A stretch of 15,387 nt of DNA from Methylobacter sp. (GTDB lineage Bacteria > Pseudomonadota > Gammaproteobacteria > Methylococcales > Methylomonadaceae). This document shows positions 11,906-13,669 of this stretch, in pieces. The stretch's first letter is position 1, and the number at the start of each line of letters is the position of its first letter. The position numbers were made by a program, and so were the translations under genes. Location of the stretch: the NCBI GenBank assembly GCA_036561065.1, contig DATBQC010000966.1, positions 1 to 15,387 on the forward strand, given 5' to 3'. The notes beneath the pieces are model-generated. The model worked only from the letters and a program-made list of their open reading frames with translations. It made no database searches and was not told the DNA's origin.

Positions 11906-13669
11906 TTAGGATGGGTGATGGACGTCCATCACCCATCTTTTCTTCCCTAAATCCCATATTTTCTTATATCCTTCTAGTGTCCTTATTTCATTTTCTGTTC
12001 TAGTTTCACCTTTCGGCTTCCTAAGTGCTGATTTGTGCAGTCTCCTATCTCCAATAACCCAGTAATAATCTGGTTTGACATCTCCATCATATTTGAACCC
12101 CATTTTTTCATATACCCCACCGGCAAATAATCTATTGTCTGAAAATGTAACGATCTTTTTCGGTTCTACAGCTTTAACAAATATAAGCATCATTTTGCTC
12201 CATATACCGTGTATTCTGAATGATGGATCCGCTGCCATCCGAGATAATTCATAATCATAATTTGATTGTCTTGACGGTCGCGTAAATGATATGCAAGCCA
12301 TGAGTCTTCCAGCAATAAATGCACCATAATGATAAATTGCTGGACGTCCTCCAAGATAATGGAATTGGTCATAGAATTTTTTCGCTTCTACATGATTTAT
12401 TTCCTTAATTTCACATTTATTTATCCGATATGATTGAGGAGACAATAAGCGGAGGCGATTTCTAATTATAATTGATATTATGTTTTTCTTATCTCTCCAT
12501 TCGTCTTCAAAAATACACATCATAGGGATGTTATTTTGGATTGCTATTGCATATTTTTCCATGTCCCTCTTCTTTGATTCATCTTTCGAATGCCACCTAA
12601 TCCCATTTATTTCAATCAATAAATTGGCTGATGGTATATAGATATCAAAAAATCTACCGCCTATTTCATATTCCTGTATGACCTCCAATCCAAGCGACTT
12701 AATATAGTCGCTTATTTCTATAGATGGCCGTGATATGCGTTTTGATGTGCACCCACACGTGATACATCGTCCTCTTCTAACGTCACTGAATCTTGGCTTG
12801 TATTCTTTCTTGCATGCTGGACATATAGCACGGAATGGTTCAACTTTATTATTTATGACTTCGAGAAAAATAATACCTCCTTCTGGTATTTGAACTGGTT
12901 GAATTGGACATTTTAAAGTCTTTAGGAATGGTTCATAATTTTTGAACCATTCAAATGCTTTCTGATAACATTTTGAACATGAAATAACATCACCGCACGT
13001 TATACTTGAGATAGATATATCTCTGATGATGCCACATCTGCATTCCAACTTTATTTTTTTCTTGCTCCACGGAAAAATTGTTATTGTTGACTCTCCTGAA
13101 TAAGTGAAATTACCGAACTTATCTCCATGATTCAAAATAATCGTGGAGCATTGTTTACACCTTGCATTTATTGCTCGCCGATATGATGTGCTTATCGAAT
13201 GCCCTATATCACATTTGAATATGAAACGTTTGTTCGATCGGAGATATATTATTACATCTTGTCCATCATATGTGAGATTTTTTAATCTGGTTCCTGATTT
13301 CAGTATAATTGATTTGCAAGATCCGCATTTTTTGGCCCGGCCTCGCATTATCGTGAATATTCTGATTTGTTTCTTCCTCCCACAGGAACATAGGAATGGT
13401 AATTTCTTCTGAGATTCGCCCTGAACACTAACATCAGGGCCATCATATTCTAAACTACCAAATTTAGTACCTCTTTTTAAAATAAATGATGTACATTCTC
13501 CGCATGTCTTTGATTTTCCGAGAGATGCGCTGACAAGCCTAATGTTTTTGATGCGTCCACATTTACATTTTAAGGGTATTTTCTTTTGACTGTATTGTCC
13601 TATTTGAAGTGAAGGTCCTTCATAAAGAAATTCCCCTATCTTTTGGCCCGTCTTGATTTCTATCTTCAT
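11906..13669 (-). CDS. Multi-domain nuclease-like protein (587 aa). It has 4 tandem ~58-aa Cys4 zinc-ribbon modules plus a further CPxC...CxxCGC cluster, a Vsr/DUF559-like PD-(D/E)xK endonuclease core and a C-terminal GNAT-fold (possibly Mom-like) domain. It is a probable free-standing homing-endonuclease-like or selfish element.
   Basis: Zinc-ribbon repeats: 'GQKIGEFLYEGP..KCKCGRIKNIRLVSASLGKSKTCGECTSFIL' / 'GTKFGSLEYDGP..LCSCGRKKQIRIFTIMRGRAKKCGSCKSIIL' / 'GTRLKNLTYDGQ..KCDIGHSIS..RCKQCSTIIL' / 'GDKFGNFTYSGE..ECRCGIIRDISISSITCGDVISCSKC'. Nuclease core: 'GGRFFDIYIPSANLLIEINGIRWHSKDESKKRDMEKYAIAIQNNIPMMCIFEDEW' matches the DUF559/Vsr-like pattern RFDF..P...L.IE.DG..H......RD..R...L...G..V.R. 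GNAT motifs: 'LSRMAADPSFRIHGIWSKMML' (motif A, R-x-x-G-x-G/A-like) and 'TFSDNRLFAGGVYEKMGFKYDG' (motif B, N..A...YeK.GF). The gene spans an AT-rich block (about 35-38% GC) flanked by 48-58% GC genes. Confidence 0.8.
   Translation of the reverse strand: MKIEIKTGQKIGEFLYEGPSLQIGQYSQKKIPLKCKCGRIKNIRLVSASLGKSKTCGECTSFILKRGTKFGSLEYDGPDVSVQGESQKKLPFLCSCGRKKQIRIFTIMRGRAKKCGSCKSIILKSGTRLKNLTYDGQDVIIYLRSNKRFIFKCDIGHSISTSYRRAINARCKQCSTIILNHGDKFGNFTYSGESTITIFPWSKKKIKLECRCGIIRDISISSITCGDVISCSKCYQKAFEWFKNYEPFLKTLKCPIQPVQIPEGGIIFLEVINNKVEPFRAICPACKKEYKPRFSDVRRGRCITCGCTSKRISRPSIEISDYIKSLGLEVIQEYEIGGRFFDIYIPSANLLIEINGIRWHSKDESKKRDMEKYAIAIQNNIPMMCIFEDEWRDKKNIISIIIRNRLRLLSPQSYRINKCEIKEINHVEAKKFYDQFHYLGGRPAIYHYGAFIAGRLMACISFTRPSRQSNYDYELSRMAADPSFRIHGIWSKMMLIFVKAVEPKKIVTFSDNRLFAGGVYEKMGFKYDGDVKPDYYWVIGDRRLHKSALRKPKGETRTENEIRTLEGYKKIWDLGKKRWVMDVHHPS
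11910..11937 (+). terminator. 28-bp perfect palindrome GATGGGTGATGGAC|GTCCATCACCCATC followed by CTTTTCTTCC. A probable intrinsic terminator for the plus-strand operon. It is embedded in the last codons (WVMDVHHP) of the minus-strand gene.
   Basis: Read directly: the reverse complement of the first 14 nt equals the second 14 nt. A T-rich tract lies immediately 3' on the plus strand. It is located 38 nt after the stop of 10970..11872. Confidence 0.5.

Follow-up and report, generated by a model that had tools for sequence, protein, structure and literature searches.

Intrinsic terminators between convergent genes are ordinary, and the element considered here resembles them in part. It is a 28-bp perfect palindrome at positions 11910-11937 of a 15,387-nt stretch of DNA (the window; contig DATBQC010000966.1, from an assembly filed under Methylobacter sp.), in which a Hef-like gene, a putative homing endonuclease, lies in opposite orientation between the phage genes ORF300 and ruvC. 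Transcribed from the plus strand, the palindrome probably folds into a stem-loop where the ORF300 transcription unit ends, and it is predicted to be an intrinsic terminator or attenuator of that unit. With ordinary convergent terminators it shares a 12-14-pair GC-containing stem, a 4-nt loop and a location tens of nucleotides past the stop codon of a co-oriented gene, and a moderately U-rich tract follows the stem; it differs from them in that the stem and the U-tract are wholly inside the opposing coding sequence, the tract is a short U4CU2, the stem-loops of relatives are often without a U-tract, and the activity is predicted.

Free-standing endonuclease genes of the T4 type offer a second comparison. 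In T4, the coding regions of mobE and segF contain intrinsic terminators, which lie at the 5' end and act on the sense strand; segD runs antisense and has terminators on its flanks (PMC2988022). The likeness of the window to these three genes consists of an endonuclease gene between conserved phage genes, a terminator (here a predicted one) in the coding region, and expression coupled via RNA structure; in contrast to mobE and segF, the hairpin of the window is at the 3' end of the gene, would act on the antisense (host-sense) strand, and belongs to a different endonuclease family. That family is the one of the Hef-like endonucleases (phage U5 Hef, the Campylobacter phage Hefs, PHROG 559/3339), which the window gene resembles in its database matches, its presence or absence at a conserved junction and its occurrence in several copies per genome, although the window protein is ~26% identical to the Hef-like proteins of cultured phages and has extra N-terminal zinc-ribbon repeats. 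I-Bth0305I (PDB 3R3P; PMC3239194) is related through a catalytic-domain profile match and through acidic and histidine residues that are invariant in the family; it is intron-encoded in recA and is without the Mom/GNAT-like C-terminal domain, whereas the window gene is free-standing. The window is set apart from the known cases by the re-use of the codons of a conserved peptide as both U-tract and stem arm, at the 3' end of the gene and in antisense.

The palindrome and its predicted stem-loop

The features on which the argument depends are, in order along the window:

10970-11872, plus strand: ORF300, a conserved phage gene; the palindrome begins 37 nt past its stop codon
11873-11891, plus strand: TTTGACTtgttgAGTCAAA, a small weak hairpin that abuts the ORF300 stop codon (−6.1 kcal/mol, z = −2.65)
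11906-13669, minus strand: gene of a 587-aa Hef-like free-standing homing endonuclease (putative) with zinc-ribbon repeats, a nuclease domain and a Mom/GNAT-like domain
11910-11937, plus strand: the 28-bp perfect palindrome, GATGGGTGATGGACGTCCATCACCCATC, whose minus strand codes for (R)WVMDVHHP(S)
11938-11947, plus strand: the U-rich tract TTTTCTTCCC, directly 3' of the stem, the reverse complement of the G-K-K-R codons (GGG AAG AAA AGA)
13668-14408, plus strand: the ruvC-like resolvase gene, right-hand border of the insertion

The palindrome is an inverted repeat with arms of 14+14 nt, zero spacer and no mismatch; it had been described as such in an earlier account of the window made from the letters alone (the sequence-only reading), and both the sequence and an inverted-repeat check bear this out. 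The minus-strand C-terminal residues WVMDVHHP assigned to it are equally correct: the repeat holds two bases of an Arg codon, the codons for WVMDVHHP and two bases of a Ser codon, and takes up the last nine and a bit codons of the nuclease open reading frame (ORF), which terminates ...GKKRWVMDVHHPS (extended C-terminus ...IWDLGKKRWVMDVHHPS). The plus-strand flank had been given as CTTTTCTTCC, of which the first base is the last base of the palindrome, the true flank being TTTTCTTCCC (11938-11947). A search for additional copies, which the same account had proposed for the rest of the replicon, found a single copy in the window, also with three mismatches allowed.

The palindrome is real and beyond chance. 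It has zero occurrences across 200 dinucleotide-preserving shuffles; perfect hairpin arms reach 11 at most, and never 14, in 200 composition-preserving block shuffles of the window; and the number of zero-spacer 14+14 palindromes to be expected analytically is ~15387 x 4^-14 = 6e-5. An assembly fold-back artefact is unlikely because the identical 28-mer is found on an independently assembled contig (L001, 4.4 kb, 99.98% identical, JGI sample 3300035109).

Folding of the RNA around the palindrome, which had been suggested as a check, returns a strong hairpin on the plus strand with 12 Watson-Crick pairs (7 G-C), an ACGU loop, −24.9 kcal/mol and z = −5.8; the stem is extendable to 14 pairs via G11909-U11938 and A11908-U11939. 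The tract UUUUCUUCCC that follows the 12-pair stem has six U in its first eight positions, in the pattern U4CU2, and stands directly behind a hairpin that begins 37 nt past the stop of a co-oriented gene. RNA of the minus strand forms the same hairpin (−22.3 kcal/mol, z = −6.4), followed by CUAACUACUUACU and no U-tract. The properties of a terminator that are found include a stable GC-containing stem, a site past a co-oriented stop codon (37, 19 and 24 nt in the window and in two further loci, L003 and L084, described below), and a structure that is conserved while its sequence varies.

In the mechanism proposed, a polymerase on the plus strand would pass the ORF300 stop at 11872, the transcribed GAUGGGUGAUGG-ACGU-CCAUCACCCAUC would fold to 12-14 pairs (~−25 kcal/mol) with UUUUCUUCCC behind it, and transcription would end, or be attenuated, before running antisense into the nuclease gene and toward ruvC. 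The ORF300 mRNA would in addition be shielded by the hairpin at its 3' end. The phage encodes a sigma-70-type factor, which suggests a bacterial-type polymerase responsive to intrinsic terminators, and it is the passage of such a polymerase that the hairpin would be expected to stop or attenuate. The history envisaged is that a Hef-like gene was inserted in opposite orientation between ORF300 and ruvC, that the spacer was squeezed, and that a stem-loop was formed from the 3' end of the nuclease gene, its 5' arm being the non-conserved tail VHHPS, which may have been shaped to pair with the 3' arm.

The ORF300/ruvC junction in related phages

The window derives from a huge phage, to which viral contigs of 63-436 kb in IMG/VR are related. 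Gene order was compared by tblastn of the window proteins against the fetched relatives, across which the order ORF165-ORF278-ORF300-ruvC is conserved. The junction is empty in L076, L077, L078, L081 and L083, where 6-104 nt separate ORF300 from ruvC; of these empty alleles L076 is nearest to the window, its RuvC being 66% identical. A Hef-like gene lies between ORF300 and ruvC in opposite orientation in the window, in L003/L074 and in L082 (2866-5001), and in L070, L071 and L072 it is divergent from ruvC, as in the window; the junction of L079 (3113-5001) is occupied by a 442-aa sigma-factor-like gene on the opposite strand, and that of L075 (5882-7930) and L080 by a 424-aa ORF. Judged by these gene orders, the ORF300/ruvC junction is an insertion hot spot. 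The premise that the nuclease gene was inserted is upheld by the empty alleles and by its low GC (guanine + cytosine) content, 35% where the flanking DNA has 44-51%. On the left side, inserted and host DNA must meet before 11909. Nuclease identities between genomes (42-84%) run roughly parallel to RuvC identities (57-86%), which makes the insertion old in some lineages.

The best single hairpin was sought in the 80 nt past the ORF300 stop in 10 alleles, and seven of these have a stem-loop of 13-23 pairs, at −25 to −31 kcal/mol, that starts 4-41 nt past the stop. The nuclease gene is present in two of the seven (the window and L074) and another insert in a third (L075); the junction is empty in the remaining four (L076, L077, L078 with a 19-bp stem, and L083 with a 17-bp stem). 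The sequences of the stem-loops differ in all seven alleles. Because seven of ten alleles, with or without an insertion, have such a structure, the palindrome is read as the local form of a host stem-loop; on this comparison of alleles, a strong stem-loop past ORF300 is a feature of the host locus that existed before the nuclease gene arrived and does not depend on it. The small hairpin at 11873-11891 has no counterpart in L003. The broader notion of a conserved hairpin at every junction was rejected, as conservation was found at the ORF300 junction only: a perfect hairpin at 10042-10068 (the ORF165/ORF278 junction), which surrounds the probable ATG of ORF278, is not kept in relatives, so that the ORF300 stem-loop signal is specific. 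L071 and L072 were not counted as ORF300 alleles, the gene beyond the nuclease not being recognisably ORF300 in either; both have strong hairpins just past the nuclease stop (AAAACCCCCTAAC-ggctt-GTTAGGGGGTTTT in L071; AGATGTCCCGCGG-g-CCGCGGGACATCT in L072).

The build of the hairpin follows the end of the endonuclease. In the nuclease family the C-terminus IWDLGKKRW(V/I) is nearly invariant, and it is followed by a tail of 2-49 residues that is unconserved in length and sequence. In the window hairpin the codons for (R)WVMD, read in antisense, make up the 3' arm and those for GKKR the U-tract, and the 5' arm codes for the tail VHHPS; the unconserved tails after RWV would be free to evolve as a hairpin arm. 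A second example is given by L003/L074, a 427-kb IMG/VR contig with the gene order of the window and a nuclease 48% identical, in which a 30-bp perfect palindrome, AGATGGGTCTATCAATTGATAGACCCATCT, stands on the same codons 19 nt past the ORF300 stop and is followed by CUUUUUCCC. The RW codons fix the outer 7-8 bp, which the two palindromes therefore have in common; of the seven inner positions, six have changed, each with a compensating change in the opposite arm. A third example, L084, was found by a hairpin-shaped pattern scan of IMG/VR. On this unrelated viral contig of 4.7 kb, a hairpin with an 11-bp stem (AGATGGGTCCG...CGGACCCATCT) and a 14-nt loop overlaps the family C-terminus ...VWDCGKKRWVRRN* and has UUUUUUUACC behind it on the antisense strand; a convergent ORF of 615 aa has its stop 24 nt ahead of the stem. 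At all three loci (the window, L003 and L084) the end of the stem is exactly the start of the KK-derived U-tract; this coincidence is required by a terminator and by neither a binding site nor a repair scar, and only a terminator predicts it.

Among the 81 distinct C-termini of the family, four bear an antisense hairpin that is anchored in this way and has ≤ −17 kcal/mol, compared with 0.96% of 3240 control positions (p ~0.008). The enrichment is suggestive, not strong. L111, one of the hits, does not count as a secure fourth case, its fold being no better than that of shuffles (z = −0.34).

Several observations weigh against termination at the palindrome. The U-tract is moderate, and if the stem is extended by its A-U and G-U pairs the tail becomes UUCUUCCC, with four U in eight. 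A generic terminator scan of the window, the kind of prediction that the sequence-only reading had called for, did not list the palindrome, likely as the G-U and A-U extension of the stem uses up two U's. The hairpins of L079, L081 and L082 are weak or absent, and most stem-loops of empty alleles are without a U-tract. In L078 the stem ends 17 nt ahead of the ruvC ATG, which implies that ruvC is reached there by read-through; because U-tracts are mostly absent and L078 would depend on read-through, the conserved role is perhaps attenuation, processing or 3'-end protection and not full termination. The enrichment test is ascertainment-biased: it includes the window as index case, L084 and L092 entered it through a hairpin-shaped pattern, and its hit L111 is not significant alone. 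Finally, the U-tract is dictated by the GKK codons, and its presence alone is no evidence of selection. An Rfam scan of the window at gathering thresholds gave no matches. The earlier proposal that the palindrome terminates the upstream plus-strand unit is supported as the probable one of the three offered by the sequence-only reading, which as a whole holds in part: position, fold, stem-loops in seven of ten alleles (four of the five empty ones) and two further family hairpins speak for termination, and the moderate U-tract and the lack of a generic-scan call speak against it.

A wider evolutionary suggestion is doubtful and is offered as speculation. The GKKRW peptide may pre-adapt Hef-like genes to an opposite-strand terminator, since the antisense of GKK(R) would be a ready U-tract and the antisense of RWV a ready 3' arm, to which a dispensable tail would add the rest of the hairpin; the symmetry of the arms could be kept by template-switch conversion. 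The arrangement would then have arisen repeatedly (in the window, L003, L084 and possibly L111), and the element, lying antisense within a transcription unit of the host, would restore the host transcript end and keep antisense read-through out of its own gene, as a self-insulating selfish gene.

Other explanations of the palindrome

The alternative that survives best is a hairpin without termination, acting purely in RNA 3'-end protection (as a barrier to 3'-exonucleases) or in processing (RNase III-type), for the ORF300 mRNA, the convergent nuclease mRNA or both; it is possible, if unlikely. A perfect palindrome folds alike in both transcripts (−22.3 kcal/mol on the minus strand), the hairpin is at the very end of the nuclease ORF, and the stem-loops of empty alleles, mostly devoid of a U-tract, are too near the ruvC start to fit a promoter. 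Protection or processing leaves unexplained why the stem ends where the antisense U-tract starts in the window, L003 and L084; moreover, the place of the stop codon in the nuclease sense varies, from 1 nt past the hairpin in the window to 19 nt past it in L003, and in L084 the loop itself contains it.

An origin as a neutral by-product of DNA metabolism is improbable, whether through template-switch or snap-back synthesis that perfects a quasi-palindrome or through repair that left a scar at the insertion's left border. Such an origin is consistent with a perfect, spacer-free repeat and with the 10 hairpins with arms ≥ 9 in the window, including a 34-bp palindrome at 614-647, which could mean a genome-wide mutational tendency. 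Recurrence on the same codons in L003 and L084, abutting a U-tract and just past a convergent stop, is unexpected for a scar; the right arm is conserved coding sequence and not border sequence, and the empty alleles already have a stem-loop at the site. Template switching could explain the perfection of the arms while selection keeps the hairpin.

The sequence-only reading had also raised the possibility of a DNA site for the encoded nuclease, and such a site, bound or cut by a dimeric enzyme as the remnant of a recognition site, as an operator for self-regulation or as a site with a part in immunity, is now very improbable. The idea has a structural basis: the family profile matches the I-Bth0305I catalytic domain over residues ~331-418 (PDB 3R3P, E = 3.8e-5), and I-Bth0305I is a homodimer with highest specificity for a 14-bp pseudopalindrome (PMC3239194). 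The symmetry of the palindrome is unbroken up to the middle, more than an RNA hairpin needs, but a self-complementary 4-nt loop is expected in 1/16 hairpins and the perfect centre is not statistically compelling. The inner 14 bp are unrelated in the same-locus homologue L003, the insertions of L070, L071, L072 and L082 lack the palindrome, and the arms in L084 are split by a 14-nt non-symmetric loop; absence from homologous insertions was among the outcomes that the earlier account had named as refuting it. A half-site search with ≤ 2 mismatches in L074-L083, covering ~10 kb per empty or otherwise occupied junction (~95 kb), gave zero hits versus 0.6 expected. A homing target is expected in the allele that lacks the gene and not within the nuclease's own coding sequence, which is where the palindrome is found.

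The recombination junction of the insertion, also suggested earlier, is not supported, as the palindrome is wholly in the nuclease ORF and its right arm consists of codons conserved in the family (RWV).

The endonuclease, its genomic setting and significance

The gene at 11906-13669 is, by its profile matches, a Hef-like free-standing homing endonuclease gene with putative cleavage activity. The 587-aa protein matches phrog_559 (E = 2e-77) and phrog_3339, 'homing endonuclease' (E = 5e-62); its Pfam matches, to MTES_1575 (25 bits) and Mom (24.6 bits), are below gathering thresholds. Its domains are the N-terminal CxxC zinc-ribbon repeats, a Vsr/EDxHD-type nuclease domain at ~318-396 and a Mom/GNAT-like domain at ~420-564, and the residues E333, D342, E353, H360, D369, K372 and E388-D389-E390 are invariant in the family alignment. 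Campylobacter phage 'Hef-like homing endonuclease' genes align over 85% of the protein and occur in 8-11 places per phage genome; two family copies are found on each of three metagenomic contigs. In Campylobacter phage NCTC12673 (L212, 48733-52527) Hef58, Hef59 and Hef60 are in tandem, and the left and right copies of the annotated 'Repeat Unit 2' lie within the 3' coding ends of successive Hef genes. The family is considered essentially viral because 185,579 representative genomes gave one small contig of a metagenome-assembled genome that carries it; an IMG/VR scan with the single nuclease protein as query gave no matches.

In addition to a major-vault-protein shoulder domain protein, the window encodes the phage's own

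1196-2413: sigma-70-type factor
8057-9031: ruvB
13668-14408: ruvC
14456-15387: recA

The vault-related protein is an 866-aa ORF at 4499-7099 with the shoulder domain PF11978 (E = 5.8e-30) and a Vault_3 repeat, and it has no PHROG match. Relatives additionally encode RuvA, ferritin and an SbcC/Rad50-like ATPase (L070 201-812, 1193-1744 and 2766-5254). GC content along the window ranges from 35% to 58%, with ruvB at 56-58%. ORF300 has no match in Pfam, PHROG, NCBIfam or PDB, and a megablast search of 9000-15387 against cultured phages gave no matches. The nuclease ATG on the minus strand and the ruvC ATG on the plus strand overlap as CATG at 13667-13670, and in L003 (3959-3964) the two start codons abut as CAT followed by ATG; these arrangements leave no intergenic space for a promoter or ribosome-binding site of either gene. 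The first ruvC codons (DPSLRSYGW) contain an imperfect palindrome, CCATCACTAAGATCTTATGGATGG, at 13689-13712, which has the 7-mers CCATCAC and ACCCATC in common with the 28-bp palindrome, probably through a coincidence of codons; the equivalent ruvC region of L081 folds as a −16.6 kcal/mol hairpin.

The window contains 10 perfect hairpins with arms ≥ 9, where shuffles mostly have none and reach a longest arm of 11. The 34-bp perfect palindrome at 614-647, TTTGCACGAAATACGGTACCGTATTTCGTGCAAA, has zero spacer and a T-run on neither side; it is in frame inside the minus-strand ORF 207-743 and at the start of the plus-strand ORF 641-1045, and neither ORF has a family match. Further perfect hairpins are at 737-759, 979-999, 1113-1136, 4997-5021, 7129-7156, 10042-10068, 10677-10701 and 12926-12952, of which the one at 7129-7156 surrounds an ATG at 7144.

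For annotation, the palindrome is not to be taken as the target of the nuclease, and the ORF300/ruvC junction, as a recurrent insertion site, is useful for locating the true homing target. No new class of element is opened by this locus. If the palindrome is indeed a terminator or attenuator of ORF300, a single stretch of DNA would meet three constraints, those of a conserved protein C-terminus, an RNA stem and a U-tract, and the locus would be an example of a host transcript boundary that survives the insertion of a selfish gene.

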